The notes: a model not told the origin generated them from the letters alone. 64,000 nt of DNA from Bacteroidota bacterium (GCA_947453935.1 CANGJU010000001.1:11112-75111); one strand, 5' to 3'; positions 3,669 to 25,736 are shown, numbered from the stretch's first letter. A program made the numbers and translations.

Positions 3669-3764
3669 TTTTGATATTGTTGTTATATGAAAAACGCAAC
3701 CTGTTAAAATAAGTGTTGCATATGTTGTTTGCGTGATAAGCTCTCCTGCCACTAAAATAGTTTT

Positions 3765-3792
3765 AATTAAAAAAGGGGCACGAGGCCCATTG
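3765..3792 (-). terminator. Rho-independent terminator (shared module, see 15372-15412)
   Basis: On the minus strand GGGCCTCGTGCCCC hairpin followed by TTTTTT, 25 nt after the stop of the 549-aa gene. Near-identical to the element at 15385. Confidence 0.55.
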
Positions 3793-3814
3793 AAATTTAA
3801 ATGCGTTTATAATT

Positions 3815-5464: not shown

Positions 5465-5476
5465 TTATACAAAATA

Positions 5477-7018
5477 TTAATGATTAAATCTAGCTATTTT
5501 TTTTGAACTGAATGTATGATTACTATACTCTGATTTTTGTATAATTAAATCATTAGTAAAATGATTAAAGTAATTAAAGTAATTAAAGTAATTATCAAAT
5601 ACATCGGTATTTTTGTTGTTTGTAGTAAATAATAATTTACCGTCTAAAGAGTAGTAACTTGTTTGTATTAATTCTTTAGATGTGTCCAAATGTATTGTTG
5701 TCGCATTTTGATTCAACTTAAAACTAGTAACAGAAGAAATAGATTTTATCATTTTATAATTAACATCCCAGATATTTGTACCTCCAATACTAATATTCTG
5801 ATAAGTGGAGAATAATTCATTGTCTGCATGCCTTCCAGCTAATGATAAAAAGGAAGATACATCATAATTGTTGTTTGTTATGGAATAAGGGACTTGCCAG
5901 AATAGAGAATCAATAGGTATAGCATTATTATTACATCTAAGTGCTATTGAATAATCGGTATAATTAACAATATTTGGATAGGATAAGTTTCCTGAATAAA
6001 ATGACCAACCAACATAAATGCCATCAGTAGGATAGTTACTCGAATAGCAAACGCTTACATAATAGTTTGCATTTTGCGATATATTAGCAGTATTTGTATT
6101 ATAATTAATTACAGATCCACCATTATTAAAGCCTTTTACATTCCAAAATGGGCTTGGTGAAGTTGAGCTGTTCAAGTGTTCATATGAAACAACCGTCCAT
6201 TCAGAAGGGCTACCCCCATTAGGCCCGGGAGAAGCAATTCTTGGAAACTCCCACTTATAACTAATCGTAGGAGGATAAGCCATTGGTATAGTAATCGTAT
6301 TAACTATATTTGAAGCTAAATCATTAAAATTATAATCATCTATTGTTAATTCGCCATTTTTAGCATCAATATAGCATACATGAACTACATCGGCATTACT
6401 GTCAGAGTATAAACTGACATCAGGATTAACTCCAAAATCCAATTGATTTGTCGAAATAATTACTGAAGATGTGTTTCCGACAGCGGCAAATATTCTTTTT
6501 GATTGGTCATCCCAAACTATTGTAAATTCCCCAACTAGCTTACTATTACCATCAATGTTTAAAGTGGTGCCAAAAGGAGCATTTGCAAAATTTGTAACAT
6601 TAACTGATGAAAACGCCAAAATGCTGCTTTTCCATTCAAATATTTCTAAATAATAATTTGAGCTCAATGAATCATAATAAACAACTGCCGCAAGAAGGTT
6701 AGAATCAGACTTTGTGAGTATACAAACGTCAGGGTCCTCTAAATATCCGGGATAAGTAAGGGGTAATGTTCCAACATAGCTATTACCCATATAATCAACT
6801 ACCCAACCGAATCCTCTATTTTTTGTAGCATTACCCCAAACACTTACACGATATGTATTATTATTAAAAGTCATAATATCACAGCCAGTATTACGGCTAT
6901 AAATCGGACTGACTCCATAACTGCTATCCTGTATAACAGGAGAAACAAATTGTGCATTAGCCATAAGAACATTAATTAATAAGCACCATAGTGCTAGTAG
7001 TTTTTTTGATATTTTCAT
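5477..7018 (-). CDS. Secreted protein of unknown function (first gene of two-gene operon)
   Basis: Signal peptide MKISKKLLALWCLLINVLMANAQ. 12-nt gap to downstream 549-aa gene. Paralog (~75-80% aa) of 51394-52935. Confidence 0.7.
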   Translation of the reverse strand: MKISKKLLALWCLLINVLMANAQFVSPVIQDSSYGVSPIYSRNTGCDIMTFNNNTYRVSVWGNATKNRGFGWVVDYMGNSYVGTLPLTYPGYLEDPDVCILTKSDSNLLAAVVYYDSLSSNYYLEIFEWKSSILAFSSVNVTNFANAPFGTTLNIDGNSKLVGEFTIVWDDQSKRIFAAVGNTSSVIISTNQLDFGVNPDVSLYSDSNADVVHVCYIDAKNGELTIDDYNFNDLASNIVNTITIPMAYPPTISYKWEFPRIASPGPNGGSPSEWTVVSYEHLNSSTSPSPFWNVKGFNNGGSVINYNTNTANISQNANYYVSVCYSSNYPTDGIYVGWSFYSGNLSYPNIVNYTDYSIALRCNNNAIPIDSLFWQVPYSITNNNYDVSSFLSLAGRHADNELFSTYQNISIGGTNIWDVNYKMIKSISSVTSFKLNQNATTIHLDTSKELIQTSYYSLDGKLLFTTNNKNTDVFDNYFNYFNYFNHFTNDLIIQKSEYSNHTFSSKKIARFNH

Positions 7019-7039
7019 AATTATTAGATTTTAGATTCT

Positions 7040-7258
7040 CAAATATAAAGTGGCAAATACCTTAAAACAATAAGTAATATTACTTATTTTTCTAGTACTA
7101 CAAAATGACAAGTATTCGCCAATTACAATTGTCTTATTAACTTGTTATCAGTTGTTTATGGTTTCAAACAGAAGGTATTATCACTCAAAAAATTGAAATT
7201 TTTGGTTCTTGAAATTTTTTAAGGTCTCCGAAAAACGTCATAATTACTTGCCACTGTT
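7040..7258 (-). promoter_or_regulatory. Conserved upstream cassette, copy 1: -7 box TATATTTG, 20-bp palindrome, inverted AGTGGCAARTA repeats, distal AAAAACGTCA motif
   Basis: Bacteroidetes-type -7 box (7040-7047, minus). IR arms at 7049-7059 and 7245-7255. Palindrome AATAAGTAATATTACTTATT at 7069-7088. Same architecture at 19524-19742 and 51158-51373. Confidence 0.6.
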
Positions 7259-7379
7259 AAATATAAAATGGATTTTAAAATCCTTTTTGTTGAAGGATAT
7301 AAAGAGGAGATAGTTCCAGATTTTCAAAACAATACTACTTTTGTAAACCCCAAATCATACACTATTCAAACTACCATCT

Positions 7380-7814
7380 ATGAAATCAAAAACCATCCTA
7401 CTATTTGCCTTTTTACTATTATCAAAAAGTATCTTCGCTCAATCTGCGTTCAATGAAATAAAAGCATTTGAGCAGAAAAGATATCAAGCTTTAATTAATG
7501 CAGATATTGCAACAACAACTAAATTGATTTCTCCTGATTTATTATACACGCATTCGAATCTAAACTTTGAAGATAAGAACGCATACCTCCTTGCACTAAC
7601 AAGTGGGAAGTACAAGTTTGAAACATTTCAAACGGATAGCACGCAATATGTTTTTCTGAATAAGAAAACAGTTATAGTAGCGGGATTCGTCCACATGCAA
7701 GGACGTTATAACGATACTCCTTATAAATTAGATGGGCGCTTTACCGCAGTGTACACAAAAAAGAAACATCAATGGCAACTGGCGGCATGGCAAACGACCA
7801 AGAAAGTAAATTGA
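7380..7814 (+). CDS. Secreted SnoaL-like/DUF4440-type small protein (NTF2-like fold)
   Basis: 144 aa, signal peptide MKSKTILLFAFLLLSKSIFAQ. ~92% identical to the 19866-20300 paralog. Confidence 0.55.
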   Translation: MKSKTILLFAFLLLSKSIFAQSAFNEIKAFEQKRYQALINADIATTTKLISPDLLYTHSNLNFEDKNAYLLALTSGKYKFETFQTDSTQYVFLNKKTVIVAGFVHMQGRYNDTPYKLDGRFTAVYTKKKHQWQLAAWQTTKKVN

Positions 7815-7841
7815 TAGTTGAGTATTTACTTTTAAAATTTA

Positions 7842-8159
7842 CTAAATCTTTTTTGCTCCTTCAATAATCGCATCTACTACTGCAGGGTCGAGGAGGGTGC
7901 TAGTGTCGCCTAAATTGCTTAAGTCGTTCTCTGCAACTTTTCTTAATATTCTGCGCATGATTTTTCCCGAGCGTGTTTTGGGTAAGCCTGTCACAAATTG
8001 TATTTTGTTGGAGCTCACCAAAGGGAATATCATTACATCAAATTCGTATTTGCTCACTTTAAAAGCGCCAGCAATAGTAATTGGAGGAAGTTTAAACAGC
8101 TTTGTGAGTGGACCGTTGAAAAAAATTGGCTCTGCTGCGTTTTTATATCCTATTGGCAA
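7842..8159 (-). pseudogene. 3' fragment of acetyl-CoA synthetase (duplicated acs remnant)
   Basis: C-terminal 54 residues ([54 protein letters not shown]) identical to the end of the full acs at 20328-22250. Homology stops near 8007. Confidence 0.75.
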
Positions 8160-8253
8160 ATCTGAGGCTTATAATCCAATTTCATTGACTATTAGTAATA
8201 GTCTTTCAGATAGTTACATTGCCGAATATTTTCATCAAGGCCAAACTTTGAGT

Positions 8254-11200
8254 ATGAATAAAGATACATCTATTAAAGAGTTGAATAGTGAGATGTATTG
8301 GAAATGTACACGAGTATCAGGTTCTTCAGTCCCTTACTTAACACTTTATTGGAATGAAAATAATATCATATTTGCAAAACCTGCAAACTGTAAAGTTTCG
8401 GCATGGAATAATAATAAATGGAAAGATAATGGGTTAACCAGTAGTTCGGGTAATGCACTGATTGGATCCATTACATGTCCATTTGATGTAACTTCAAGTT
8501 ATTATACTGTTGGGAGAATAAATGATACAACATCGGTTACAGATCAAAAATTTCTTAAAGATGTTGCATTGCTTGGATTGGATTCAATTATTACCAAGGA
8601 AACATTAGTTGTTAATGGCAAACTAGTCTACAATAAAAACCTGCCTAATGTTAATTGTATTGATACAATATTTTGGAAATCATCAATTGGAGATTCTATA
8701 ATAAGCGAGTATTCAAATGCTATCGCCACTTTAAAAGGGAAAGATTATTTTGGTTCAATTAATTTGGATGGAGACACAATTTACGGTGGTGGTTTTTATA
8801 AGTTAAATACTAAAGAGTTTGTGAAAGGTTTAACACTTTTTGGTGATTCAACTACTAAATATTATTTCAAATCTGATTCTTTACTTAATTTTCGTAAAGG
8901 CGCAGCAATAATATTTGAAGGTGTTTTAGAAGAAAATGTTACTTGGTGCTTGAATGAACTTAATATAGATTCTCTTACAGAAATACATGGAGTATTCTTC
9001 GCCAATAGTTTTACATCTTATAAATACAATAGTGGTAAAATTCAACTTTTCGTTCAACATAAGGTTAATTTTAATAACGAAAATAATTTTAATGATTATA
9101 TTCATATTGTTAATAAAGTTAATCTCAATAGTTTGCGATATAGTATTCCCATTAATCCTCAAATTTGGTGTGCTGAATGCATTTTTAATCCTGGTTTAGA
9201 GTTAGGCAATATGCCTACTAATTTTGGACAAATAAATTCTGCGATTGGTTGGGGGAATATACGTAACTTAAATTGCAGCGCAATTGGTGGTAATACTCCA
9301 GATTTGATGGATGTTACATTTTTCCCTAGTGCTTATTCTTGCACTTCACAAACAACTGGTGTAGGTATTCCAGTGAATTTTGCAAGTAGTGTAGTAAATG
9401 TTAATACAATTAATACACCTAATAGAAGATACATGCATATGATAAACGGTGAATCTGCTGATATGTCAATAATTAATTCAAGTTTGACAAACAAAAAATA
9501 TCTACTCGACTATTATTACGCTTTCTCTAATTGTAACGGGCCATCTGTTTCGGGGGCTCAAACTTGGATTTCTTGTATATCCTTATCTTCTAATACTAAC
9601 TTTACTCCCAGTTTAGGCGGATTTAATTATGATCAAAGTAATGGTTTAGGCGTTTGGAGGCATGCATTTAGTTGTTTGGATTTGTATAGTTTGCCAAATC
9701 CAATAAATACTTATAATAAGTTGTCAATTACTGGATTAATTAATCAAAATCAACCCGCTGATATTTTTCTTGATGATTTTAGCTTGGTTCAACTTGCTAG
9801 AAATGCAGGTTCCGATACTATTGTTTGTTCAGGCACAACGGGAGTTCAAATCGGTATACCAACATTTTGTTTAGGAAGTAAGCCAGATTTGATAGTTTCA
9901 TATTCATGGACCTCAGTCCCAAATTATAATTTTACATCTGGTCAAAATACTAATCCCTATATAATTGTTAAACCTACAGTTTCTACAGTTTTTCGACTTA
10001 CAACCACAATTCAATACACTGATGGTAATCAAAATATCGTTACTTGCTCTGATTTTGATGATATAAACGTTCAAGTTTCAAATTTATCTGGACAAATTAC
10101 GGTAAATCAAGATCCATGTACTGCTATACAGGCTCAATTAACTGTAATGCAAACTAATGGCATAGCACCATATTCATATTTATGGAGTAACGGCTCCGTT
10201 GGTAATATGACAACAGTAAATACAAATGGAGTTTATTCTGTAACAATAACTGATGCTACAGGTTGTTCGTCTGTGGTTTCTCAAAATATAGTAATTACTA
10301 ATTTTCAAGTTATTCCTTCAAATGCATTAGGTTCTTGCATTGGTCAAAATACAGGTCAAATATCAATAACTACAATTGGTGGCTTAAGTAACTATTCATA
10401 TAATTGGACATGTGGCGCTTTAAGTGGTGGTGGTACCAGTTCTCAGCCTAATTGGACAATATTCAATCTTCCAAATGGTAATATAACAATTAACATATCA
10501 AGCTCTAGTGGTTGCTCTAAGACTATTTCTGTTGTGTTAGTGCCCAGCGTTATTGTTGCTCCAATCCCAATAATCAATGGTGAAATTTCAGAATGTTCAC
10601 CTAATGATTTATATGAGGTTACTAATGTAGTTTCTGGAGCACAGTATAATTATATAATTACATTTAGTAACCTGACTACAGTTACGGGTTCGGGTACAAG
10701 TGTAACAATCAATAGTAATACATATTCCTTATCGTCAGCTGGTTTTAATGTTACTTTTATAGCAAATCAAGGTACTACCTGTGAAGTTTCATCCAATTTG
10801 CAAGTATATAGTTGTTGCGAAGGAGGACCTAATTTAAATAATAATATTAATACAAATTATCCGACACTAACATTTAACAATATGTCAGCGTCTCAATTAT
10901 TATTAATATCTGATTTAAATGGGTATGTTTCGCAATTGAATGGGCCAAATAATTCTCCTTATGTAGTCTTAACTTCTAAAAGCGCTAGTGCGCAAAATAT
11001 TGAAAAATTTGCAATTAATGGTACTTTTAGTGTTGATCAAAACATGGTCATAAGTTTTGCAGAAATATTAATGGGACCGAACGCAAAATTTGTTTTGCAG
11101 CCAAATGTGGCTTTAATAATTCAAGATGATGTTTATATGCATGATTGCGGATATATGTGGGATGGTATTTATCTAACAAATTCATCACCATCAAGTTTTA

Positions 11201-13569
11201 TGTATTCTCAACAATTACTGTATATTGAAGGTTCGAAGAATGGTGTAGTTGTATCAAGAGAAAATGAAGTACACTTAGAAAAAACCACATTTAATCAAAA
11301 TTTATGTGCAATTCAAATTTTAAATTCTTCAAATAATGGAAGTACGTTTACAGGTTGTAAATTTGAATCTGTTAGTAATTTATTTACTGCCCCATTTACA
11401 ACTAATACATTAATTAATCCGAGTCCAACATATTCAGTTATTAATACTCCCCCAATTTCCCAGCAGCAAAATGTGAGAGGAAAAGGATTTTCTGTTTTAA
11501 ATTGCTTCAATACTCAAGGAGGTTTTGGTTTGCAAATAGGACATTCATCTTTAAGTTTGCAAGCTCCTATGTCATCAAATTTTGGTTGTGTTACTTGTCC
11601 TCCCAATGAGTTTATTAATCTTGATAATGGTATTGTTGCTAAAGATGCTCAAATTAAAATTGTAAATAATAAATTTGTTCATATTGATGATTTAATATCT
11701 AATACCATTGCTGGTTCAGGTATTGTTAAAGTTGGTACAGCAGTACATATATCTGGTAGCCCTTCTCCAATAAGTAATAGTAAAATTGTGGTTGGTGGTT
11801 CGAATAATTCAGTATTTAATTTGAATAATTTAAAAAATTATTTTACAAATTGTAAAAATGGAATTTATACTGGACCATATACGGAAGTAGATATTTCTTA
11901 TAATCAATTTGAAAATATATATATCAATGCTATTCATAATTTTTACCCAACAACAAATGTAAATATGGTTGATTTTACAACAAAAATAAACAACAATAGA
12001 TTTCTAAATTGTAATAGGGCAATTATGTCATATAATTTGTTTTCGCGAAGCGGTCAATTACATGAAATAAAAAGTAATTATTATTTTTGGGGAAATTTAA
12101 CAATCCCATTAGCTCCTTTGAATTATAGCCCTTATCGTCAATTCTTAAGTGTTCAAAATACAAACAATACTGCTTTAAATATTGAAGTTTCGGAAAATTA
12201 TATTAGCAATGCACATACAGCTTTTTCTTTTATAGGTGTTGCCGGTAATTCACCTAATTATGCGAAAGTTGAAAATAATACAATTACGCTTGCAGGCTAT
12301 CCACTTGGCACTTATGCTGCTGAATATGGAATCAGAACAATGGTTTCACGAAATCTTTCTTTCAATCAAAATACAATTTCTGGAACTACACCTATGAATG
12401 TATTTCAACGCGGCATCAGTAATGAAACTGGTCAAGGATATATTGAATATAAAAACAATAATTTATTGCATTTAGGTGCAGGAATACGTGCTTATAATAG
12501 TATGGTTACACTTGGTTTGTATTGTAACATCATGGATCATGATTACGTAGGATTTGTGAATGATGGGAGCAACGTAGGGCAACAAGGTAATACATCTAAT
12601 ACAAACGATAACCAATGGACTAATAATTATTATTATGATGAATTTGCTAATGGTCAATATTTTTATAGCAATTGGTATCTGAGAAGTTTTCCTAATAGTT
12701 ATCAACCAATTGTATTGCCTTTAAACATAAATTTGTCAATATTTAAAAATTTAGTCAATAATATTAATATTACAAACTGTACTAACCCATGTTTATCACC
12801 TTCACAATGTAGGTTAAGTTATTATATTGACAAAATTTATGCTATCGATACATCCAACTTTTATTCGTTAGAACAAAAATATTTGGTACAATCAAGTTTA
12901 TATGAAGAATTAATGGCAGAAGGAATTGATACGATAGTTGTTCAGGATTCCCTTTTTATTGCATTTAAAGACAGCATGTCGAATTCCAATGCGACAAAGC
13001 TTAATTCAATTGACGAAGTAGCAAGTATGATTAGTGTTAATACCGCAGAAACAATAAATGATAATATAACGCCAGGTAATAATAGTGAGTCTAACTTGAA
13101 AGTATTTAATGATGTATATTTGGAAACATGGGCTCGTGAAAATTACGAATTGACACCAGCACAAATTGAAATTTTAACTTCAATTGCAATACAAAATCCA
13201 GTGGAAGGAGGTGTGGCCGTTTATTTAGCTCGAATACTTTTAGATATTTTTATTGATGATGAATTGCCAGAAAGTCAAGCTAGATTATTATCAATAAACT
13301 CAGAAAGTAAAAAGCTAAAATTACTAAACTGCAAATTGATCCAAAATCCTATTGAAAACGATATCAGAATTAATTGTACAGACGATATTAAATCTGTAAA
13401 TTCTGTTAATTTATATAATAGTTTAGGTCAATTAGTCGCAAGTTGGCATAATCTATTTGCAAATAACGGTTTACTCGAACTTTCGGTAAATGGGTTAACT
13501 CAAGGATTTTATAACATCGTTTTAATAAGTGATAATAGTGTGTATAACGATAAAATATTTATAAAATGA
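8254..13569 (+). CDS. Giant T9SS cargo protein (~1770-1890 aa), Ig-like/beta-helix-type repeats, Por C-terminal sorting domain
   Basis: Continuous ORF open from 7897. The first ATG after the duplication boundary is 8254. C-terminal T9SS tail (...GFYNIVLISDNSVYNDKIFIK). No clear signal peptide was found, so the true start is uncertain. Confidence 0.55.
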   Translation: MNKDTSIKELNSEMYWKCTRVSGSSVPYLTLYWNENNIIFAKPANCKVSAWNNNKWKDNGLTSSSGNALIGSITCPFDVTSSYYTVGRINDTTSVTDQKFLKDVALLGLDSIITKETLVVNGKLVYNKNLPNVNCIDTIFWKSSIGDSIISEYSNAIATLKGKDYFGSINLDGDTIYGGGFYKLNTKEFVKGLTLFGDSTTKYYFKSDSLLNFRKGAAIIFEGVLEENVTWCLNELNIDSLTEIHGVFFANSFTSYKYNSGKIQLFVQHKVNFNNENNFNDYIHIVNKVNLNSLRYSIPINPQIWCAECIFNPGLELGNMPTNFGQINSAIGWGNIRNLNCSAIGGNTPDLMDVTFFPSAYSCTSQTTGVGIPVNFASSVVNVNTINTPNRRYMHMINGESADMSIINSSLTNKKYLLDYYYAFSNCNGPSVSGAQTWISCISLSSNTNFTPSLGGFNYDQSNGLGVWRHAFSCLDLYSLPNPINTYNKLSITGLINQNQPADIFLDDFSLVQLARNAGSDTIVCSGTTGVQIGIPTFCLGSKPDLIVSYSWTSVPNYNFTSGQNTNPYIIVKPTVSTVFRLTTTIQYTDGNQNIVTCSDFDDINVQVSNLSGQITVNQDPCTAIQAQLTVMQTNGIAPYSYLWSNGSVGNMTTVNTNGVYSVTITDATGCSSVVSQNIVITNFQVIPSNALGSCIGQNTGQISITTIGGLSNYSYNWTCGALSGGGTSSQPNWTIFNLPNGNITINISSSSGCSKTISVVLVPSVIVAPIPIINGEISECSPNDLYEVTNVVSGAQYNYIITFSNLTTVTGSGTSVTINSNTYSLSSAGFNVTFIANQGTTCEVSSNLQVYSCCEGGPNLNNNINTNYPTLTFNNMSASQLLLISDLNGYVSQLNGPNNSPYVVLTSKSASAQNIEKFAINGTFSVDQNMVISFAEILMGPNAKFVLQPNVALIIQDDVYMHDCGYMWDGIYLTNSSPSSFMYSQQLLYIEGSKNGVVVSRENEVHLEKTTFNQNLCAIQILNSSNNGSTFTGCKFESVSNLFTAPFTTNTLINPSPTYSVINTPPISQQQNVRGKGFSVLNCFNTQGGFGLQIGHSSLSLQAPMSSNFGCVTCPPNEFINLDNGIVAKDAQIKIVNNKFVHIDDLISNTIAGSGIVKVGTAVHISGSPSPISNSKIVVGGSNNSVFNLNNLKNYFTNCKNGIYTGPYTEVDISYNQFENIYINAIHNFYPTTNVNMVDFTTKINNNRFLNCNRAIMSYNLFSRSGQLHEIKSNYYFWGNLTIPLAPLNYSPYRQFLSVQNTNNTALNIEVSENYISNAHTAFSFIGVAGNSPNYAKVENNTITLAGYPLGTYAAEYGIRTMVSRNLSFNQNTISGTTPMNVFQRGISNETGQGYIEYKNNNLLHLGAGIRAYNSMVTLGLYCNIMDHDYVGFVNDGSNVGQQGNTSNTNDNQWTNNYYYDEFANGQYFYSNWYLRSFPNSYQPIVLPLNINLSIFKNLVNNINITNCTNPCLSPSQCRLSYYIDKIYAIDTSNFYSLEQKYLVQSSLYEELMAEGIDTIVVQDSLFIAFKDSMSNSNATKLNSIDEVASMISVNTAETINDNITPGNNSESNLKVFNDVYLETWARENYELTPAQIEILTSIAIQNPVEGGVAVYLARILLDIFIDDELPESQARLLSINSESKKLKLLNCKLIQNPIENDIRINCTDDIKSVNSVNLYNSLGQLVASWHNLFANNGLLELSVNGLTQGFYNIVLISDNSVYNDKIFIK

Positions 13570-14564
13570 AAAAATACTTAATCATTTTGTTTGTTTTGGT
13601 TTTCGCACAGCCATACATTGGTTTAGCCCAAATTAACCTTGTACCCAACCCTTCTTTTGAAGATACGGTAGATTGTCTTACCAGTGGATTAGGAGGGATA
13701 AATAGTAATAAATGCTTGTATTGGTATTCCTTTCGTTCTAGCCCAGATTATTGGACAGAATGCTCCAATTATGATCAAATTCCTAATATTGGAGCTACTT
13801 ATCAATATGCTCATTCTGGTAATAAAATGATAGGATTTGCCACTTATACAACTCCAATTGCAATACCTGGACTTTTTCGTGAAATTCCGGGCGTTGATTT
13901 AATTCAACCAACTATATCAGGGCAACGCTATTATTTTTCAATGTTTATAAATCAATGCTATAACAACAAACCACTATGGTATTGTTCACTAGGTTCAAAT
14001 AGAATGGGAGTAAAGCTAACAAATACATATTACATTCAAGGCGCTCCCATTAATAATAATGCGGATTATGTTGATACTATTTTTCATACTGATACATTAA
14101 ATTGGACTAAAATTAGTGGTTCATTTATCTCCAACGGAAGTTTTACTAAATTGATGATTGGTAATTTCTTTGATGATGCTCATACAGATACAATAAATTT
14201 AGATAATGATAGTGTTACCTATCAACTTGCTATCGCTTATTATTTAGTTGATGATGTTTGTTTATCAACTGATTCTATATACGCTGCAACGTGGACAGGA
14301 ATAAAGGAAAATCAATTAAGTCAACTACCAATTTCTTTATCGCCAAATCCAACAAATAGTTCAATAACCATCAATGGTTTAATTTCACCATTCTCGGAAT
14401 TTAGAATAATCGATGTTCAAGGAAAAGTTTTGCAAAATCAAAATTTGAAACCTAATTCAACAAATTCATTAAATATTGATGTTTCCTCTTTACCAACGAA
14501 TATGTACATTATTCAGTTTATTTCTGCTAACGAAATTGTGTGTAAGAAATTCATTAAAGAGTGA
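13566..14564 (+). CDS. T9SS C-terminal sorting domain cargo protein
   Basis: ATGA start/stop overlap with the giant gene. Signal peptide MKKYLIILFVLVFAQPYIGLAQ. Por tail at C-terminus. Confidence 0.7.
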   Translation: MKKYLIILFVLVFAQPYIGLAQINLVPNPSFEDTVDCLTSGLGGINSNKCLYWYSFRSSPDYWTECSNYDQIPNIGATYQYAHSGNKMIGFATYTTPIAIPGLFREIPGVDLIQPTISGQRYYFSMFINQCYNNKPLWYCSLGSNRMGVKLTNTYYIQGAPINNNADYVDTIFHTDTLNWTKISGSFISNGSFTKLMIGNFFDDAHTDTINLDNDSVTYQLAIAYYLVDDVCLSTDSIYAATWTGIKENQLSQLPISLSPNPTNSSITINGLISPFSEFRIIDVQGKVLQNQNLKPNSTNSLNIDVSSLPTNMYIIQFISANEIVCKKFIKE

Positions 14565-14692
14565 TTAAAAGTTCGATTTAGTTATTTTTGCAAACATTTA
14601 ATATCAACCAAAACTGAATTTATTTTTTCGATTTAAATTTTTGTTTATTCCACTATTAAATAGGAGTAATTTTTAATGAGAAACAATAGGCC

Positions 14693-14716
14693 CAGACTTA
14701 ATTAAGTCTTTTTCCT
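14693..14716 (+). terminator. Terminator candidate
   Basis: Perfect 16-nt palindrome AGACTTAATTAAGTCT followed by TTTTT. Confidence 0.4.
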
Positions 14717-15089
14717 AAATTATTGCCTTACTATATTCTAATATCCCATTTTAACATGAAAATTTCAATTGGTAAGATACAGCATCAGTAATAAATAATA
14801 ATGGATGCCCATTGTTTTCTATTGCCTATCATTATTTCGTAGTACTGATATTGGTAAAGTAAGTAAGATGGGAATAAGAAGAAAATAAATAGGGTACAGC
14901 ATGAATTAAGTGAAGGCATAAGAAAGGCACTTAACTGGCAATCACCTAAAAAAGTGTTGGCACAAGAGATACTAAATCTTTCTAATTAATAATATTGGTT
15001 TTAATACTACTAATTTCATATGCTTGATTATACAAAAAAAGTGCACTAAAATATTGAACCGAATAAATCAAATTGTCAAATTTCCAATC

Positions 15090-15370
15090 GCAATTCTGAT
15101 TCCTCGGGAAGTGATCAAATCGTCATATCAATTAAACGTTTGTAAATGCGTATCAACCGTATAATTATTTCCAGATGTTTAAATTTACTGCGGTCCCGAG
15201 GTTTTCTCGGGATTCGGTGGGGCTGTTGTCCCCCCATAGTGTTGAGAGATTGTTTTTTTAGTTCGAGGCCTCGCTAATTGCTAATGAAATACATTAAATT
15301 TATTTAGCATATTCACACATCGTGATCCCAGCCCGAGGAATCGGGATCGCAATGCGAGCTCATTAATATT
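15090..15370. other. GC-rich structured non-coding island in an 880-bp gene-free convergent spacer (possible sRNA or repeat element)
   Basis: Local GC spikes with hairpins TCCCGAGGTTTTCTCGGGA, TGGGGCTGTTGTCCCCCCA, CGAGGCCTCG, GATCCCAGCCCGAGGAATCGGGATC. No ORF of 60 aa or more. Confidence 0.35.
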
Positions 15371-15371
15371 T

Positions 15372-15412
15372 TTTTGCATAAAAAAGGGGCATGAGGCCCC
15401 TTGATATTTTTG
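15372..15412. terminator. Bidirectional rho-independent terminator (shared module)
   Basis: AAAAAAGGGGCATGAGGCCCCTTGATATTTTTG. Hairpin flanked by an A-run and a T-run. 30 nt downstream of the 384-aa gene stop. Confidence 0.6.
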
Positions 15413-15442
15413 AAAAACTAATTATTTATTTATTTTTAATAA

Positions 15443-16597
15443 TCACTCCAACACTATTTTTTTACTGGTTATTATTTTGCCATTTTCTTGAAGATTGACC
15501 AGGTAAACCCCACGCGACCAAGTAGAGCAGTTAATAGTGTTATAATTAATTGCAGCCGAAGAATAAATAAGTTGCCCTTGTGAATTAACAACTTTTATTT
15601 GAGCTTGCGCCGAAGTTTTATAGGGCAAATAAACTGTGAAATTAGAACTGGCAGGGTTGGGGTACACTGACAAATCCTTTAGAGCGGAAGGTATTTCATT
15701 TACGCTTACTAAGGAGCCATTGATGCAGGTTGCCATAGTTTTTCTATTTGTAGGTGCAATAAAATTAATGGGAGGTTCTCGAACTACTGTGTCATTTATA
15801 ATTGCGAAGGGAATTAAATCAGTAGGAGACGGCCCATTGGAGGCATCAGTCCCTACATAAATTTTATTGTTCATTATAAACATCCCGTGAGCACCAAATA
15901 GGTCACAATAAAAATTCAATGGATAGTCATGAATTAAATTACCCATTTCATCGATGCATCTTAAGTTGGTAGCAACCCAATAACCACTGCTGTTACCAAT
16001 GTGATCAAAAAACCAAATTTGATTTAAATTATCGATTGCCAATTGAGTAATAATATATTCATTTGGATTCCATGGATAAATGATAGTATCCGCAATTTGA
16101 TTCAAATTATTATATTTTAATCGTACTAAATCTACTTCCCACCCACCACTAGCGATAGGTGAAGAAGCTGCAGCAACAATAAAATTGTCATTACCTGTCA
16201 TTGAGCCACAAGGGAAATTCAAATTGACATTAATTGTATCCCAATTATTTAAATTGGTATTAAACCTCCTTAAATAACTAGTATCCAAATCATAAAAAGT
16301 CCTACATGCACTTGGGTATTCTAAATTTACGAGAGCTAAATTTGGAGAATATGGTGCGATACTTGTTTTATTTAATGTAACCAAAGAAATTGTATTATTT
16401 ACCAGGGTATATTCTGCTATTCTGAATGAGTCAACTGGCGGACCAAGATAATATTTTAGCCAAAATGTATTTGGATTGCAGGGTATATTGAAACATGCAG
16501 CAGTATCATTTACTTTATTAGCAGATGTTTGCCCGTATATATTTATATTGACAATTATCACAAATATAATTGTCAAATAATGTTTTATATTTTTCAT
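15443..16597 (-). CDS. T9SS C-terminal sorting domain cargo protein
   Basis: Signal peptide MKNIKHYLTIIFVIIVNINIYGQ. Por tail (...LVNLQENGKIITSKKIVLE). Confidence 0.7.
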   Translation of the reverse strand: MKNIKHYLTIIFVIIVNINIYGQTSANKVNDTAACFNIPCNPNTFWLKYYLGPPVDSFRIAEYTLVNNTISLVTLNKTSIAPYSPNLALVNLEYPSACRTFYDLDTSYLRRFNTNLNNWDTINVNLNFPCGSMTGNDNFIVAAASSPIASGGWEVDLVRLKYNNLNQIADTIIYPWNPNEYIITQLAIDNLNQIWFFDHIGNSSGYWVATNLRCIDEMGNLIHDYPLNFYCDLFGAHGMFIMNNKIYVGTDASNGPSPTDLIPFAIINDTVVREPPINFIAPTNRKTMATCINGSLVSVNEIPSALKDLSVYPNPASSNFTVYLPYKTSAQAQIKVVNSQGQLIYSSAAINYNTINCSTWSRGVYLVNLQENGKIITSKKIVLE

Positions 16598-16605
16598 CGT
16601 TTGAA

Positions 16606-19503
16606 TTATTTCGTGTTGAGTTCTTTTTTACTACCTATATATTGATTTTGATAGTAATATTTAATAAGGAATAAGGAATTAGGGTACTTTAATTTGTCTT
16701 TGCTCCAACTCATTAAAGAGTTTTGGTAAACTAATTTACCTGATATATCAAAAACCTCTAAACGTACAAATTCTTTTTGCATATCATTTAATTGCAATAG
16801 TTGTTCAAGAGTTAATATTTCAGTAACATTAGTAGTTGAAATATTGCTTATTCTTAAATTAAAATTATTGATATGATATTCACGATCAAGTAAGGTGCGG
16901 CTGTTTCTAACTCCTGTTCCACCAATTAATTCATCTGTAATTGCAATTGCTTCTAAGTCTTGTATTTCATTTTCGGTAGGGTCTCTATCTTCTGCAATTA
17001 ATGATAGTGTTATCCTATCCACAATTAGGTTGTTCTCTTCAATTGTATTATTTGAAATCATATTGTTTAATCGATATAAGGCGTCAATAACGGTTTTTTC
17101 ATTGCTTAGTGCTATTGCATCTACATAATTCCCTATATTATCTTGACGATGCAAGTTAATAAAATCTACATAGTTTTGATCTAACGCTTGAAGAGCAGAG
17201 TCATTTGAGATTACTGAGTAAGCAAATACTTTATCTAAATAATGATTTTCTTCTATGTTTTCATCATATTCTAATTCATTATAAATTATTTGGCGAACAC
17301 GTTCATAAATAGCATCTGTTAAAGTGGAGTTTGATTGACCACAGAATGAATTTTGAGCAACATTAGTAATGTGTACAATAAAATTATTAATTGGATTAAC
17401 ACTAATGGATATAATTGGTGAACTGCCAGATAAATACCAACTAACGGCATCTACCGTACCTCCAAATTTAGAAATATTGATTTTAAAAGAGGTAAAAAAG
17501 TTATTATAGGGCATTAAAGGCTTGCCTTGATCGGCTAACTTTGCTTTGCTAAAATAAATACCATTTAAAAACCCTGTTAAAGGAGTAGATGGATCTCCTT
17601 CAAAGTTATTACAATAAATATTTGTGCCAACACAATCATCTTTGATATACAAACCACTACCCATTTTATTTAATTTGTTTTCACTAATAATTGAGTTTCT
17701 TCCACTGCAATTATCTAACTTAATTCCAATCAACTGGTTTATATAATCTTTAGTAGTACTATTTATGGGATTCGTTTGAAAAATATCATTAGAATTTACG
17801 AATATTTGATTCGAATTTTCTAAGTAGATTCCTGCATGATAAGGGTTTTCCGAAATATTAGGTGTTGGTGTATGACTTAAATTAAAACTATTAAACCTTA
17901 TAGGAAACATGCTTGTAGTATCATTTCCTAAACCTTTAATATTGCTAGCATAAATACCCATTCTAGCCGCGTTAAAAGTATTGTTTTGAATATGACCATT
18001 AATGGTAGTAGGGGATACAAATGCTAAGCGAATTGCAACATTTTCTAAATTGCCATATGGTTTTTGAATTTGAAAATAAGTACCAGTATTAAACGTATTG
18101 CTGTCAATTTCTAAAGTAGCTTCAATAAATCTTTTGCAATAAATTGCGCAGTAAAAGCGTGAATCGAAACTGTTTCCAAAAATTTTAATCGTTTTACTTG
18201 AAATATTAAAATTATCTACGCGCACACCACCTAGTGAATTAACATTATTTATGTTGTTTTTATAACAATAAACATTAACATTTTTAAAAGCATTTACACC
18301 ATACTTGCAGTTATTTATTAGATTATTATTGGGTTTTAACAAGTGTCCAAAATTTATTGTTTGTTCTTGGTTTGATGTTCCTTCACAATAAATAGCACTC
18401 CCATTATAAATTCGGGTATTGGTATAAGCGGATATAGGAATTGTATTAACTATAGTAACACGCTCTGGAAGTGTTATTGATCCTCGGATATTAGCAATAC
18501 CAATATTCATATTCTGAATATTAATTTGCATTACATCATTATTTATTTGGTTGTTGAAGTTAGGGTTGTCATATAGATAAAATCCAGCAAAACTTTTGCT
18601 TTGTGGTGTAGTTTGTTGCCCGCAGTAATTGGGTAATAAATTAAAATTGTTGTTTATTGAAATTCCTGGTCCAGTAGAACCGCCAAAATTTAAGTTATTG
18701 CCATTAGGATTTTCAGGTGAATAAACAGCTATGTAATTATCTAAAAATTGACTTGCATTAGGTGATCCATTATTGAAATCACCTGTTATTGTCCCTTTGT
18801 AATAAAGGCCATATTCCGCATCTCTTATTGTACTTCCATCCCTTATTTTAATTGTTGCTTGATCCTGAGCGTGTATACCTTGCCACAAATGCCCACATCC
18901 TGCTTGGATGGTTGAGTTTATTAATCCAAATCCCATATTAGGTATAACATTGATAATTCCACCTTGGTCAACATTTATAATTGTATTGTGAATTTCAAGG
19001 GTTTGATTGACTAATAATTGACCGTGTAGTTCAATTATACTATTTTGATTTGGATATATTAACGGGTCATAGATAAAGGTAGTTCCATTTTGAACGATAT
19101 TAGGTATTTTATCTGGTGTAATGTCAATTAATTGCGGAAGTGAATCATTTTGACAACAAGGTTGTAGGTACAAAGTATCAGTAGCATTACAAGGACTTGT
19201 TTGGTGCAAAACAATCATTGCATAATAAAAAGTTGAACTATTGATTGCAGAATTTGCTGAAAACTGATTTCCTGTTACTGATAAAATACTTGTTGTAATA
19301 GGCGAATCATATACATCATAAGTGGTCAATTCTGCTGAATAAATTCCTGCATTATTATAATTATCAATTGTGTAAATAAATAAGTTTTGAGGACCACACA
19401 AGCTTTGTTTGCCATTAATTTTGGGGTTGCAATTTTGTCCGTTAGCCAAAACGCAATTTAATAAAATGCACCAAAGTGCTAATAAGTAGTTGCTTTTTTT
19501 CAT
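16606..19503 (-). CDS. Large secreted right-handed beta-helix-like protein with T9SS C-terminal domain
   Basis: Probable start is M18 of the track ORF (MKKSNYLLALWCILLNCVLANGQ), 21 nt downstream of the TATATTTG box. The longer 19554 start would overlap the promoter. 8-nt gap to the 384-aa gene. Confidence 0.7.
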   Translation of the reverse strand: MKKSNYLLALWCILLNCVLANGQNCNPKINGKQSLCGPQNLFIYTIDNYNNAGIYSAELTTYDVYDSPITTSILSVTGNQFSANSAINSSTFYYAMIVLHQTSPCNATDTLYLQPCCQNDSLPQLIDITPDKIPNIVQNGTTFIYDPLIYPNQNSIIELHGQLLVNQTLEIHNTIINVDQGGIINVIPNMGFGLINSTIQAGCGHLWQGIHAQDQATIKIRDGSTIRDAEYGLYYKGTITGDFNNGSPNASQFLDNYIAVYSPENPNGNNLNFGGSTGPGISINNNFNLLPNYCGQQTTPQSKSFAGFYLYDNPNFNNQINNDVMQINIQNMNIGIANIRGSITLPERVTIVNTIPISAYTNTRIYNGSAIYCEGTSNQEQTINFGHLLKPNNNLINNCKYGVNAFKNVNVYCYKNNINNVNSLGGVRVDNFNISSKTIKIFGNSFDSRFYCAIYCKRFIEATLEIDSNTFNTGTYFQIQKPYGNLENVAIRLAFVSPTTINGHIQNNTFNAARMGIYASNIKGLGNDTTSMFPIRFNSFNLSHTPTPNISENPYHAGIYLENSNQIFVNSNDIFQTNPINSTTKDYINQLIGIKLDNCSGRNSIISENKLNKMGSGLYIKDDCVGTNIYCNNFEGDPSTPLTGFLNGIYFSKAKLADQGKPLMPYNNFFTSFKINISKFGGTVDAVSWYLSGSSPIISISVNPINNFIVHITNVAQNSFCGQSNSTLTDAIYERVRQIIYNELEYDENIEENHYLDKVFAYSVISNDSALQALDQNYVDFINLHRQDNIGNYVDAIALSNEKTVIDALYRLNNMISNNTIEENNLIVDRITLSLIAEDRDPTENEIQDLEAIAITDELIGGTGVRNSRTLLDREYHINNFNLRISNISTTNVTEILTLEQLLQLNDMQKEFVRLEVFDISGKLVYQNSLMSWSKDKLKYPNSLFLIKYYYQNQYIGSKKELNTK

Positions 19504-19523
19504 GATTTTTAGTTTTAGGTACT

Positions 19524-19742
19524 CAAATATAAAGTGGCAAATAACTGAAATCAATAAGTAAAATTACTTATTTTTTAATCCATTAAAAATGGCAAATAAC
19601 GTTTCTTGATTATTGTCCTTTAAATTAATAATCAGTTATTTATAGACTATTATACTTATATTTTTTGGCTCGATCAATCAAAATTTTACCTTTTTGAAAT
19701 TTTCAAAGGGCTTCAAAAAAACGTCAGATTTTACTTGCCACT
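19524..19742 (-). promoter_or_regulatory. Conserved upstream cassette, copy 2
   Basis: -7 box at 19524-19531 (minus). IR arms at 19533-19543 and 19732-19742. Near-palindrome AATAAGTAAAATTACTTATT at 19553-19572. Confidence 0.6.
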
Positions 19743-19865
19743 GAATTATATAATAAAGACGGAGAACTGCAAGTTGTTTCGCTTCATGGGAATGCATAAA
19801 ACGCTAATTTCAAAACAATCCTACTTTTGTAAACCCCAAATCATACACTATTCACACACCTATCT

Positions 19866-20300
19866 ATGAAATTAAAAACTATCTTACTATTTACCTTTTT
19901 ACTATTATCAAAAAGTATTTTCTCTCAATCTGCATTAAACGAAATAAAAGCTTTTGAACAGAAAAGATATCAAGCTTTAATTAATGCAGATATTGCAACA
20001 ACAACTAAATTGATTTCTCCTGATTTATTATACACGCATTCGAATCTAAACTTTGAAGATAAAGCAGCATATCTCTTTGCATTAACAAGTGGAAAGTATA
20101 AATTTGAAACATTTGAAACGGATAGTACGCAGTATGTTTTTCTGAATAAGAAAACAGTTGTTGCAGCGGGATTAGTCCATATGCAAGGACGTTATAACGA
20201 TACTCCTTATAAATTAGATGGGCGCTTTACCGCAGTGTACACAAAAAAGAAACAGCAATGGCAATTAGCAGCCTGGCAAACGACCAAGAAAGTGAATTGA
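19866..20300 (+). CDS. Secreted SnoaL-like/DUF4440-type small protein
   Basis: Paralog of 7380-7814. Signal peptide present. Confidence 0.55.
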   Translation: MKLKTILLFTFLLLSKSIFSQSALNEIKAFEQKRYQALINADIATTTKLISPDLLYTHSNLNFEDKAAYLFALTSGKYKFETFETDSTQYVFLNKKTVVAAGLVHMQGRYNDTPYKLDGRFTAVYTKKKQQWQLAAWQTTKKVN

Positions 20301-20327
20301 TAGTTGAGCAATTAAATTTTCAATTCG

Positions 20328-22250
20328 CTAAATCTTTTTTGCTCCTTCAATTATCGCATCTACCACTGCAGGATCCAGTAGAGTGCTGGTATCTCCTAAA
20401 TTGCTTAAGTCGTTCTCCGCAACTTTTCTTAATATCCTGCGCATGATTTTTCCTGAGCGTGTTTTCGGTAAGCCTGTCACAAATTGTATTTTGTCGGGCT
20501 TGGCAATAGGACCAATAACTTTGCTTACGACGTCTAAAATTTCTCTTCGTGTTGTGTGTTCATCTTCTGGTAAGTGGTCGCATATAACGTAAGCGTATAT
20601 ACCCTGTCCTTTAATTTCATGCGGGTAACCAATCACCGCCGATTCAATCACGTGAATATGCTCGTTAATGGCATTCTCAACCTCTGCGGTTCCTAGTCGG
20701 TGGCCACTTACATTGATGACATCATCAACACGTCCAATTATCCGGTAATAACCATCGTGGTCGCGTTTGCAACCATCACCTGTAAAATATAAATTCTCGT
20801 ATGTACTGAAATAGGTCGTGCGACATCGCTCATGGTCGCCATAAGTGGTGCGCAGCATACCAGGCCATGGGTACTTAATGCATAAGTTGCCTTCTACATT
20901 ATTGCCTTCAATGATTTTTCCTTCGGCATCTACCAGCACAGGCTGCACGCCCGGAAGTGGTAAGGTAGCAAAGGTCGGTTTAGTAGGAGTGATATTAGCA
21001 AGAGGAGATATCATCACGCCTCCAGTTTCCGTCTGCCACCAGGTATCAACAATGCCGCAATTTCCTTTCCCAATTTTTTCATCGTACCAATGCCATGCTT
21101 CTTCATTAATAGGTTCTCCAACGGAGCCCAATGTTTTTAAGCTTGCTAACGAATACGGAGTAACGAACTCGTCACCTTGTGCCATCAGCGAACGAATAGC
21201 AGTCGGAGCAGTATAAAAAATATTTACTTTGTGTTTATCAATTACATTCCAGAATCTTCCTGCATCAGGATAAGTAGGAATGCCTTCAAACATTAAAGTG
21301 GTGGCACCGTTTAATAAGGGTCCATAAACAATATAAGAATGACCTGTCACCCAGCCGATATCTGCAGTACACCAGTAAATATCACCTGCGTTATATTGAA
21401 ACACATTGGCAAAAGTATAAGCTGCCCAAACCATATAGCCAGCTGTTGTATGCACAACTCCTTTTGGTTTACCTGTAGATCCAGAAGTGTATAAAATAAA
21501 TAACATGTCTTCTGCATCCATCGATTCAGCAGCACATTCATTCTCACAGTCTTTTATTGCATCTTTCCAGTAAACATCTCTTCCTGCTTGCATGTTAATC
21601 TCTGAATTTGTATTCTGAAATACAATTACGGTTTCAACGGAAGAAGTAGAAGCGAGCGCATTGTCTACAATTTCTTTTAAGTTCAATGCTTTTGCTCCTC
21701 TGTAAACACCATCTGCTGTAATGACCATCTTGCAAGTAGCATCATTAATTCTATCTGCTAAACTCTGAGCAGAAAATCCCGCGAACACAATCGAATGAAT
21801 AGCGCCAATTCTAGCGCAGGCTAACATCGCAACAGCTGCTTCGGGTACCATTGGCATATAAATACAAACACGGTCGCCCTTTTTTACTCCAGCATTTTTA
21901 AGCATGTTAGATGCTTTACAAACTGCGTGATACAATTCACGATACGTAAGCGTACATCCCTTGCCGTTAGGGTCGTTGGGTTCCCAAATAATAGCAGGTG
22001 TATTTCCATTTGTATCAAGATGACGGTCGAGGCAGTTTTCTGTGATGTTTAAAACGCCACCTTCAAACCATTTTACATCAAACGATCTAAAATCCCAGTT
22101 CAATACGTTATCCCAACGTTTCTTCCACACAAAATTCTCCGCTATATCATTCCAGAAGGATATAGGATAATTAACGCTTTTTTCATAGGCCTGCTGATAG
22201 GCTTCCATCGACTCAATACGTGTATTCATGCTAGTTGATTTAAAAGTCAA
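20328..22250 (-). CDS. acs: Acetyl-CoA synthetase
   Basis: 640 aa with canonical AMP-binding and ACS motifs (YTSGSTGKPKGV, TYRELYHAVCK...). Confidence 0.9.
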   Translation of the reverse strand: MTFKSTSMNTRIESMEAYQQAYEKSVNYPISFWNDIAENFVWKKRWDNVLNWDFRSFDVKWFEGGVLNITENCLDRHLDTNGNTPAIIWEPNDPNGKGCTLTYRELYHAVCKASNMLKNAGVKKGDRVCIYMPMVPEAAVAMLACARIGAIHSIVFAGFSAQSLADRINDATCKMVITADGVYRGAKALNLKEIVDNALASTSSVETVIVFQNTNSEINMQAGRDVYWKDAIKDCENECAAESMDAEDMLFILYTSGSTGKPKGVVHTTAGYMVWAAYTFANVFQYNAGDIYWCTADIGWVTGHSYIVYGPLLNGATTLMFEGIPTYPDAGRFWNVIDKHKVNIFYTAPTAIRSLMAQGDEFVTPYSLASLKTLGSVGEPINEEAWHWYDEKIGKGNCGIVDTWWQTETGGVMISPLANITPTKPTFATLPLPGVQPVLVDAEGKIIEGNNVEGNLCIKYPWPGMLRTTYGDHERCRTTYFSTYENLYFTGDGCKRDHDGYYRIIGRVDDVINVSGHRLGTAEVENAINEHIHVIESAVIGYPHEIKGQGIYAYVICDHLPEDEHTTRREILDVVSKVIGPIAKPDKIQFVTGLPKTRSGKIMRRILRKVAENDLSNLGDTSTLLDPAVVDAIIEGAKKI

Positions 22251-22361
22251 ATATAAAAAGATGCATGGAATACGAGTGCGAAAAATGGAGATTGTAAGGT
22301 GCTTGTAAGATTTACCCTTAAAATAATCATTACTGTTTCAAGCTGAAGTTAACTTGCCTTC

Positions 22362-22754
22362 ATGATTAAGCGAACAATTATACTTTCTATGTTTCTTGCT
22401 ATGAACTATGTTTCATCGGCGCAGAACTCTAGCGAATGGAAAGAGCTGATCATAAAAACACCTACGCTCAATGAATGGACGGTGTTTAAAATTAATCGTT
22501 GGTTGCATTGCCTTGATGGAGTTCACTTGAGCGGATATTACCAGCCTTCCAGTTGCTTATTAATTAAATATGATACACAAAAAATTCTCGATCCCGCCAT
22601 AATCAAGGTGGTTATCTCTTACCTCAATCAGAAAATGAAATCGGAGGTATTATCAGGCTACACTATTTACGACATTGTCGATAATAAATATGTAGCTCCT
22701 GAGCCAATCAAATCACAAACAGTATTAAAAACTTCAAAAAACAAAGGAGGCTAA
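22362..22754 (+). CDS. Hypothetical secreted protein
   Basis: 130 aa with N-terminal signal peptide. Confidence 0.4.
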   Translation: MIKRTIILSMFLAMNYVSSAQNSSEWKELIIKTPTLNEWTVFKINRWLHCLDGVHLSGYYQPSSCLLIKYDTQKILDPAIIKVVISYLNQKMKSEVLSGYTIYDIVDNKYVAPEPIKSQTVLKTSKNKGG

Positions 22755-22830
22755 AAAAAAGAATAAATGAATAATGATTTACTTCAAAAGGCTTTGTGAT
22801 AAATGTATGTTATTGCAAAGCCTTTTTATT

Positions 22831-25534: not shown

Positions 25535-25736
25535 GGTGCTAAGGTATTAAATATTTTATTGCTTAAGATTATCAATTGAATTGGATGGAGGCATTCCATG
25601 TTTTATATGAGCAATAATCATAGCTATTTAAATCAATTAAAATTTCGAAGAGACTGAAAAATTGAATAGTAATAATTATTATTCATCGTTTTATATTTTT
25701 AAAACAAATGCTCATCATATATTCTAAAATCAGGAA

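Follow-up and report, generated by a model that had tools for sequence, protein, structure and literature searches.

The stretch of DNA analysed here (the window) is 64,000 nt from a Bacteroidota bacterium (GCA_947453935.1 CANGJU010000001.1:11112-75111) and contains a direct repeat of about 1 kb, each copy of which carries a 144-aa DUF4440 gene followed by the 3' end of acs, the acetyl-CoA synthetase gene. The origin of the repeat is best explained, with a probability of about 0.7, by two versions of one hypervariable locus having been joined head to tail in a single illegitimate join, which truncated one copy of acs and a giant cargo gene. The left version would run through a 549-aa and a 513-aa gene, intergenic region A, the first 144-aa gene (144A) and an acs fragment (acs'), an arrangement of a kind seen singly in the related loci L003 and L014. 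The right version would run from the giant gene through a 332-aa gene, a spacer, a 384-aa gene, a 965-aa gene, intergenic region B and the second 144-aa gene (144B) to the intact acs, an arrangement of a kind seen in reduced form in the related locus L001. As such it is a well supported but ordinary structural variant, an instance of known mechanisms with nothing new in kind.

The direct repeat is real and far beyond chance. A repeat search of positions 5000-23000 found three co-linear direct-repeat blocks (300 nt at 91% identity, 86 nt at 81% and 52 nt at 73%), all with a spacing of 12,484-12,486 bp, that is in direct orientation and one unit apart as in a tandem duplication. Pairwise alignment of the two copies with MAFFT (6900-8200 against 19385-20690) showed similarity from about 6946/19431 to 8008/20494 with an abrupt drop beyond, homology past 8008 being 36%. 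A first-pass annotation had described 7019-8007 as a diverged copy of 19504-20491, and both the repeat blocks and the alignment bear this out with slightly wider limits; leftward the repeat reaches about 70 nt further, into the first 23 codons of both divergent minus-strand genes (6946-7018, MKISKKLLALWCLLINVLMANAQ, and 19431-19503, MKKSNYLLALWCILLNCVLANGQ, with 67% nucleotide identity between these signal-peptide ends). From left to right each copy thus holds the signal-peptide end of the divergent gene, an upstream module, the 144-aa DUF4440 gene and the last 54 codons of acs with its stop. The left part is the upstream module of cargo operons, and the right part, from about 7325, is the 144-aa gene with its own promoter and the acs end. 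Identity between copies A and B is uneven, at 84% over 7019-7093, 58% over 7094-7324, 91% over 7325-7380, 89-99% in the 144-aa gene and 92% over the acs 3' end, and two long exact runs (104 and 74 nt) lie inside the repeat. The parts common to both copies are 6946-7093 and 7325-8007 only, not the whole unit that a tandem duplication would share, and where the left copy has the 549- and 513-aa genes the right copy has the giant, 332-, 384- and 965-aa genes. It had been proposed that the repeat would fall if similarity were confined to the 144-aa coding region, with no acs-derived piece at 7842-8007; the alignment shows the opposite.

The acs-derived part of copy A is acs' (7842-8006, minus strand), which consists of the stop and last 54 codons of acs, severed from the other 586 codons. 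Its counterpart lies in the intact acs gene (20328-22250, minus strand; last 54 codons 20331-20492, stop 20328-20330), which has the Acs architecture of Pfam ACAS_N, AMP-binding and AMP-binding_C domains. The peptide encoded by acs' is identical to the C-terminus of the intact protein; the 13 nucleotide differences are all at third positions and all synonymous (dS, synonymous divergence, 0.47; dN, non-synonymous divergence, 0), with a probability of about 5e-9 if they had fallen at random over 37 synonymous and 125 non-synonymous sites. When acs' was aligned with the acs 3' ends of 15 related loci its peptide matched the consensus and 11 of the 13 differences were also found in functional acs genes of other lineages, leaving two private ones (at 7878 and 7980). 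The synonymous-only pattern, with most differences present in functional orthologs, argues that acs' is not an old copy made in situ and provides no evidence of a functional peptide. Its divergence arose instead inside working acs genes of different lineages, the fragment being a recently truncated allele. The description of 7842-8007 as a dead fragment reproducing the last 54 acs codons holds, acs' being a non-functional remnant.

The two 144-aa genes encode DUF4440/SnoaL-like proteins of the NTF2 fold (144A, with a signal peptide, 7380-7814, plus strand, Pfam DUF4440 2e-16; 144B, 19866-20300, plus strand, 1.2e-16), and their scores for Pfam PF14534, 60.8 and 61.5 bits, lie above the cut-off of 25.2. 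They differ at 11 of 144 residues and are 92.4% identical, in agreement with the earlier figure of ~92%, with a dS of 0.30 and a dN/dS of 0.12. Look-ups of both proteins for exact matches found none.

Comparison with related loci indicates that copies A and B are different alleles. The central intergenic stretch of copy A (7094-7324) is identical to L003 at 231 of 231 positions and 99.6% identical to L014, as against 58% to copy B, and the corresponding stretch of copy B (19578-19810) is identical to L001 at 233 of 233 positions. Copy B overall is ~98% identical to L001, its 144-aa gene being 98.6% identical at the nucleotide level and the final 166 nt of the intact acs 100%, in flanks that either side are 84-92% identical to L001 except for a 97-100% tract across a 218-aa gene. 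On the left, ~100% identity extends over 4089-7338 (the 549-aa gene, the 513-aa gene and intergenic region A) to L014 and over 3717-5416 to L003. The L014 match runs only up to 7338, and the 144-aa gene and acs end of L003 and L014 are only 80-94% identical to copy A; the nearest sampled allele to 144A is only 92% identical. Compared with L003, the right flank of the window is 87% identical and the left flank 96-100%. The copies are thus identical or nearly so to alleles of different lineages, A to L003/L014 and B to L001, rather than duplicates that diverged in place. The pattern is a mosaic of ~100% tracts set in flanks of 80-90%, and the juxtaposition of such tracts with neighbours of 80-94% argues for frequent homologous exchange among diverged relatives at this locus. 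Within the 104-nt exact run A and B share two variants that L001 lacks, which hints at gene conversion between the copies within the genome. The near-identity between copy B and L001 does not end at the acs -54 codon position, mismatches resuming only at 20532, and the idea of a special boundary there was rejected. Along the left end of the window identity to L001 is 84-92% over 1-2500 and 97-100% over 2501-3670, and window positions 25566-29391 (~3.8 kb) are missing from L003.

The join itself was located by a three-way comparison of copy A, copy B and L006, an ENA contig that carries P0001, a full-length homolog of the giant protein. Homology switches from acs to the giant gene within 8004-8011, acs extending to 8008 and the giant gene beginning at about 8003, where acs and an internal part of the giant gene have a putative microhomology, TTTnTnGG. 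At this single novel junction acs breaks off 54 codons short of its stop and the giant gene sets in at about codon 430; a 28-nt exact run common to A and B (7981-8008) directly precedes the junction. The giant cargo gene is 5'-truncated (8008-13569, plus strand), with 1853 codons remaining and about 430 N-terminal codons, signal peptide included, gone. What had been listed as a giant open reading frame (ORF) of 1890 aa (7897-13569) is a mechanical call with a GTG start at 7897 that falls in antisense acs', true coding homology starting only at ~8003. Residues 31-231 of this ORF align to residues 428-628 of P0001 with 69% identity, and DNA homology to L006 begins at window position 8001. P0001 has a normal signal peptide (MRTSLKSILLIVALFSFFSSYAAN) and about 427 further N-terminal residues, all lacking from the remnant, which has no N-terminal Sec signal. 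The remnant has an SprB repeat, and its C-terminal matches to Por_Secre_tail and TIGR04183, domains of type IX secretion system (T9SS) cargo, fall short of the cut-offs (23.0 bits against 27 and 21.6 against 23). A search for the missing 5' part across the rest of the window did not find it, and a local inversion or translocation of the 5' end of the giant gene is not supported. The 1853 codons are free of stops, where 4.9% of random substitutions would create one, which argues that the joining event is young; the giant gene is probably a young pseudogene. No intrinsic-terminator-like site was seen between 144A and the remnant, which is possibly transcribed by read-through from 144A. In L006 the ORF calls divide the only close homolog of the giant gene (471-4240) into an overlapping pair of 642 and 621+ aa. 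Coverage of this contig is 2.8x, and the split is probably a frameshift error of assembly rather than real.

The wider context was taken from 16 related loci with a homolog of the 144-aa gene, collected by genome scan, metagenome scan, and protein search with context look-ups; the metagenome scan with 144A yielded one short locus only. A single 144-aa gene was found in all 16, and a convergent acs in all 15 that extend past it, L005 ending inside the 144-aa gene. Where both the 218-aa gene and the 144-aa gene are visible, between zero and eight genes separate them. There is nothing between the two in L005, one 173-aa gene in L009-L011, a 552-aa homolog of the 549-aa gene in L003, and eight genes in L007. 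In L001 the interval holds a 172-aa gene, a C-terminal remnant of a giant-like gene, a 333-aa gene, the spacer and a 390-aa gene. L014 has a 549-like gene, a 510-aa gene, intergenic region A, the 144-aa gene and a full-length acs in that order; its contig starts inside the 549-like gene and the 218-aa gene is not visible. The 549- and 513-aa genes to the left of copy A thus sit at the same position in L003 and L014. From these comparisons the stretch between the 218-aa gene and the DUF4440-acs pair appears to be a hypervariable slot, whose set of secreted or T9SS cargo genes changes from lineage to lineage. L001 is deposited as 'MAG: Chitinophaga pinensis' (MAG, metagenome-assembled genome), yet it has this low-GC locus in common with MAGs labelled Chitinophagales or Bacteroidota bacterium, and the label is apparently a placeholder or mis-assigned.

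These loci alter the interpretation of the 8-19.5 kb block. The first-pass annotation regarded it as an inserted accessory island and predicted that related genomes would have a single 144-acs unit with the block absent. The single unit was found throughout, whereas part of the block is present in L001, which carries the 332-aa gene, spacer, 384-aa gene and giant remnant at the slot, and the block is therefore not foreign to the locus. It would be the second of two slot versions, the first being that of L003/L014. The footprint of insertion or recombination that was read beside acs stands as regards recombination and fails as regards insertion; the feature is an illegitimate join that breaks two genes. 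Environmental bacteria carry hypervariable flexible genomic islands, or replacement islands, which encode surface and secreted proteins between core genes. The present locus resembles them in its conserved flanks (the 218-aa gene and 144-acs), in a slot content that differs in each sampled lineage and in its ~100% tracts in 80-90% backgrounds. It differs in that two slot versions lie in tandem in one chromosome, with genes broken at the joint.

The joint at 8004-8011 would be the novel joint expected of a tandem duplication whose unit has its left end near codon 430 of the giant gene and its right end at acs codon -55. The copies differ as alleles, which requires homologous recombination between lineages, a process independently evident at the locus, and such recombination would have either supplied the copies or overwritten them. 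Two routes can be envisaged. A fragment from a related strain may have been integrated through homology on its left side and an illegitimate end on its right, that is by homology-facilitated illegitimate recombination (HFIR; route a), or a microhomology-mediated tandem duplication of ~12.5 kb may have arisen in situ and been followed by allelic replacement of its outer parts (3717-7338 and copy B; route b). Route b seems slightly favoured because 7339-8007 and 8008-19503, the sequences flanking the joint, have no near-identical relative.

Both routes have precedents. Tandem duplications with microhomology junctions arise independently of RecA, for example in lac and ampC amplification in E. 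coli (PMC1428787), and the window resembles them in its direct repeats, in a single joint, with a few bp of putative microhomology, that connects the right end of the unit (acs) to the left end (the giant gene), and in repeats that allow later loss or amplification through homologous recombination. Unlike them, only ~0.75 kb of the 12.5-kb unit is common to the copies, and that as different alleles, so that further allelic replacement is needed; fresh laboratory duplications have identical copies, whereas those here are diverged. HFIR during uptake of foreign DNA uses joints of 3-10 bp, according to a passage in PMC6382021 that summarises de Vries & Wackernagel 2002 and Prudhomme et al. 2002. 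What resembles HFIR is sequence from a related lineage, 3717-7338 being ~100% identical to L003/L014, whose 144-acs unit and right flank reach only 80-91%; this sequence would lie beside a homologous left flank and end at an illegitimate joint of a few bp in a resident gene. A difference is that the left tract is mosaic, with ~100% identity to L014 only up to 7338. HFIR calls for RecA-dependent uptake in a naturally transformable host, and the organism here is uncultured and known from sequence only. As for the left end that HFIR would leave, the L003 locus stops at window position 2217 and the flank is a mosaic; the illegitimate end is present at 8004-8011.

A number of points count against the head-to-tail joining of two slot versions or limit how far it can be taken. 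Routes a and b give the same joint and the order of events is not separated by it, and the joint at 8007 is itself taken from assembled sequence. The microhomology is short and imperfect (~6 of 8 nt common to the acs and giant-gene parents) and could be due to chance in AT-rich DNA. No sampled relative is closer than 92-94% to 144A-acs', and hence the source of the right half of copy A is unsampled. The uninterrupted frame of 1853 codons fits a recent event but also continued selection, and the relatives are all MAG or metagenome contigs, several of them short.

Of the other explanations the most obvious is that a segment of ~1 kb was copied while an island inserted beside acs and then diverged in place, the acs piece decaying. 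Direct repeats of constant spacing bracketing the block, a truncated acs fragment and relatives with a single unit are all what this would produce. It is contradicted, and highly improbable, because the central intergenic stretches of the two copies each match a different external allele in full, yet each other at only 58%, because all 13 changes in acs' are synonymous and mostly shared with functional acs genes where neutral decay would give ~77% non-synonymous changes, and because part of the block occurs at the same place in L001 and the joint truncates the giant gene. Integration of the 8-19.5 kb block at 144-acs as a mobile genomic island, by site-specific or Campbell-type recombination with the repeats as attachment sites (attL/attR), would account for direct repeats around a block of lower GC (28-36% as against 36-41% in the housekeeping flanks), and a circular intermediate with the homologous 1 kb would yield the same topology. 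Yet no integrase, recombinase or transposase was found by a Pfam scan of all ORFs of at least 100 aa in 3.8-22.3 kb, the block having no other ORFs of at least 80 aa, and the block also lacks tRNA genes. The repeats are ~1 kb long and 58-99% identical by segment rather than short exact att sites, and low GC is common to all cargo genes, within the block or outside it. Campbell-type insertion in particular is disfavoured by a left flank that is 96-100% and a right flank that is 87% identical to L003, which do not form one background. A mobile island is thus very unlikely.

The arrangement might also be an artefact of assembly or concatenation, in which the sequences of two strain variants, the first broken off in acs and the second beginning within the giant gene, were placed end to end at 8007. 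The copies are indeed different population alleles, each found singly in MAGs; the same joint was found in no other assembly searched; and the 28-nt exact run before the joint is of the sort seen at contig ends of collapsed strain bubbles. However, no more than ~6-8 nt are common to the two sides of the joint, well short of any assembler k-mer; within the repeat the assembly passes unbroken through the longer exact runs (104 and 74 nt); there is no run of Ns; and the structure matches a single joint of tandem duplication or HFIR with both broken genes in the expected orientation. An artefact is therefore considered unlikely. A different proposal concerns acs' alone, as a functional small protein encoded by a 105-aa ORF (7842-8159, minus strand) whose conserved C-terminal motif acts as a decoy for Acs-modifying enzymes. 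The 54-residue peptide is perfectly conserved, an in-frame upstream TTG provides the 105-aa ORF and both private substitutions are synonymous. This conservation is explained by divergence within functional acs genes, two synonymous changes out of two are not significant, the N-terminal half of the ORF is antisense to the giant remnant with its demonstrated plus-strand homology, and the ORF has neither a Pfam match nor an equivalent in related loci. The functional peptide was rejected as barely credible, 11 of the 13 synonymous changes being shared with functional orthologs.

If two slot versions were joined, the genome would thereby have acquired the 513-549 operon and another DUF4440 gene. 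Recombination between the repeats (0.7 kb, 91% identical) could remove 12.5 kb and leave one hybrid unit in place. The exact runs that they share, of 104 and 74 nt, are long enough for RecA-dependent recombination, and the suggestion that the repeats permit later excision or amplification is plausible. For annotation, the '1890-aa gene' is what is left of a gene that lost its 5' end, with an apparent start that lies in antisense acs; the 105-aa ORF is an artefact of the fusion, and one of the DUF4440 genes is a xenolog-like allele and not a paralog born here. With regard to method, synonymous-only differences in a 'dead' fragment together with the identity of each copy to a different external allele separate joined alleles from divergence in place, and caution is needed since diverged pairs of direct repeats can mislead. 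For the biology of this uncultured, freshwater-type Chitinophagales/Bacteroidota lineage, the slot beside acs is one in which turnover of secreted and T9SS cargo is very fast and involves both homologous and illegitimate recombination.

The upstream module, which makes up the left part of the repeat, comprises a promoter, inverted GTGGCAA/TTGCCAC motifs, the palindrome AAGTAATATTACTT and the first ~23 signal-peptide codons, and occurs three times in the window. Intergenic region A (7019-7324) is composed of block 1 (7019-7093, with CTCAAATATAAAGTGGCAAATA and the palindrome), an A-type allele-specific stretch and block 2 (TTACTTGCCACTG at 7244-7256), and intergenic region B (19504-19865) of block 1, a B-type allele-specific stretch, block 2 (19731-19743) and the 144 promoter. 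The third copy, which covers part of the module, was identified by blastn, tblastn, motif searches and alignment. It is inverted (51130-54594, plus strand; module 51130-51393), has a block 1 with CTCAAATATAAAGTGGCAAATA and a block 2 with TTACTTGCCACT, and precedes paralogs of the 513-aa gene (51394-52935, 70% aa identity) and the 549-aa gene (52945-54594, 73%). This inverted operon, at a distance of ~44 kb from copy A, is preceded by an 830-aa murF-alr-like gene. Each copy of the module has AAAGTGGCAAATA followed ~200 nt away by an inverted ACTTGCCACT, at 7038-7059 and 7244-7256, 19522-19543 and 19731-19743, and 51354-51375 and 51157-51169 respectively. The perfect palindrome lies between block 1 and the gene-distal side, with A/T variants in copies B and C. 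The motifs may be regulator binding sites for expression of the cargo genes. The upstream module is also found before different cargo genes in L001, L003 and L014. That it is a portable recombination cassette by which secreted-protein genes are swapped at the DUF4440-acs slot, cargo exchange being guided by homology and not the result of incidental recombination, is quite unlikely. The promoter region of 144A (7325-7379, plus strand) has a Bacteroidota-type -7 motif, TACTTTTG at 7336-7343, which we take to be a putative TAnnTTTG promoter motif; it is kept in A, B, L012 and L004 and is TACATTTG in L005. Scans for consensus promoters and terminators performed no better than on shuffled sequences.

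The cargo genes of the left version are on the minus strand. The 513-aa secreted-protein gene (5477-7018), divergent from copy A and with its first 23 codons (6950-7018) in the repeat, is ~100% identical to L014, has 70.5% aa identity to its paralog and gave no match in Pfam or NCBIfam. The second gene of the operon, the 549-aa T9SS cargo gene (3815-5464), has a type A C-terminal domain (Pfam Por_Secre_tail 3.9e-08) and is ~100% identical to L003 over 3717-5416 and to L014 over 4089-5464. In the right version the 332-aa T9SS cargo gene (13566-14564, plus strand; Por_Secre_tail 3.8e-11) has an L001 ortholog with 89% nucleotide identity in the same order, and the ortholog of the 384-aa T9SS cargo gene (15443-16597, minus strand; Por_Secre_tail 2.5e-14) is a 390-aa gene that is the divergent neighbour of the single 144-acs unit in L001. 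The 965-aa secreted-protein gene (16606-19503, minus strand), divergent from copy B and with its first 23 codons in the repeat, has no counterpart in L001. It had been listed as 982 aa from a TTG at 19554, but the ATG at 19503 aligns with the start of the 513-aa gene and is most likely the real start. A Por_Secre_tail/TIGR04183 domain above the curated cut-off was found in the 549-, 332- and 384-aa proteins; the 513- and 965-aa proteins had no Pfam or NCBIfam match to a T9SS C-terminal domain. Of the 332-, 384- and '982-aa' genes previously called T9SS cargo the first two keep that designation and the third has no such domain by Pfam or NCBIfam. By eye the N-termini of the cargo proteins other than the giant remnant look typical for Sec signal peptides, and the N-terminal 38 aa of the 513-aa protein are 45% identical to the 965-aa protein.

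The gene-free spacer (14565-15442) contains a GC-rich hairpin element at ~15138-15260 and a terminator-like hairpin at ~15379-15412. Rfam (E up to 0.1) gave no match in the region and a tRNA scan found none in the window. The element, of ~120 nt, reads GTTTGTAAATGC...TTTACTGCGG and continues with a hairpin (GGTCCCGAGG/CTCGGGATT) that is optional, after which come a GC hairpin (GGTGGGGCTGTTGTCCCCCC) and a T-run. It is 100% identical in L001 and 74-77% in L004 and L012 (window 15138-15260, plus strand; L001 8164-8324; L004 467-594; L012 1-99), and in L004 the optional hairpin shows one compensatory pair. Possible identities of the element are a small RNA, a leader and a terminator. The 144-aa gene follows it directly in L004 and L012, and the 965-384 operon was thus apparently inserted between the element and the 144 promoter. 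Gene swaps at the slot break at or within signal-peptide codons. The L003 homolog of the 549-aa gene is ~100% identical except for the last ~48 nt, where a different signal peptide follows (window 5416-5464 against L003 3198-3255), and the starts of the 384- and 965-aa genes have ~30 nt in common (16568-16600 and 19474-19506).

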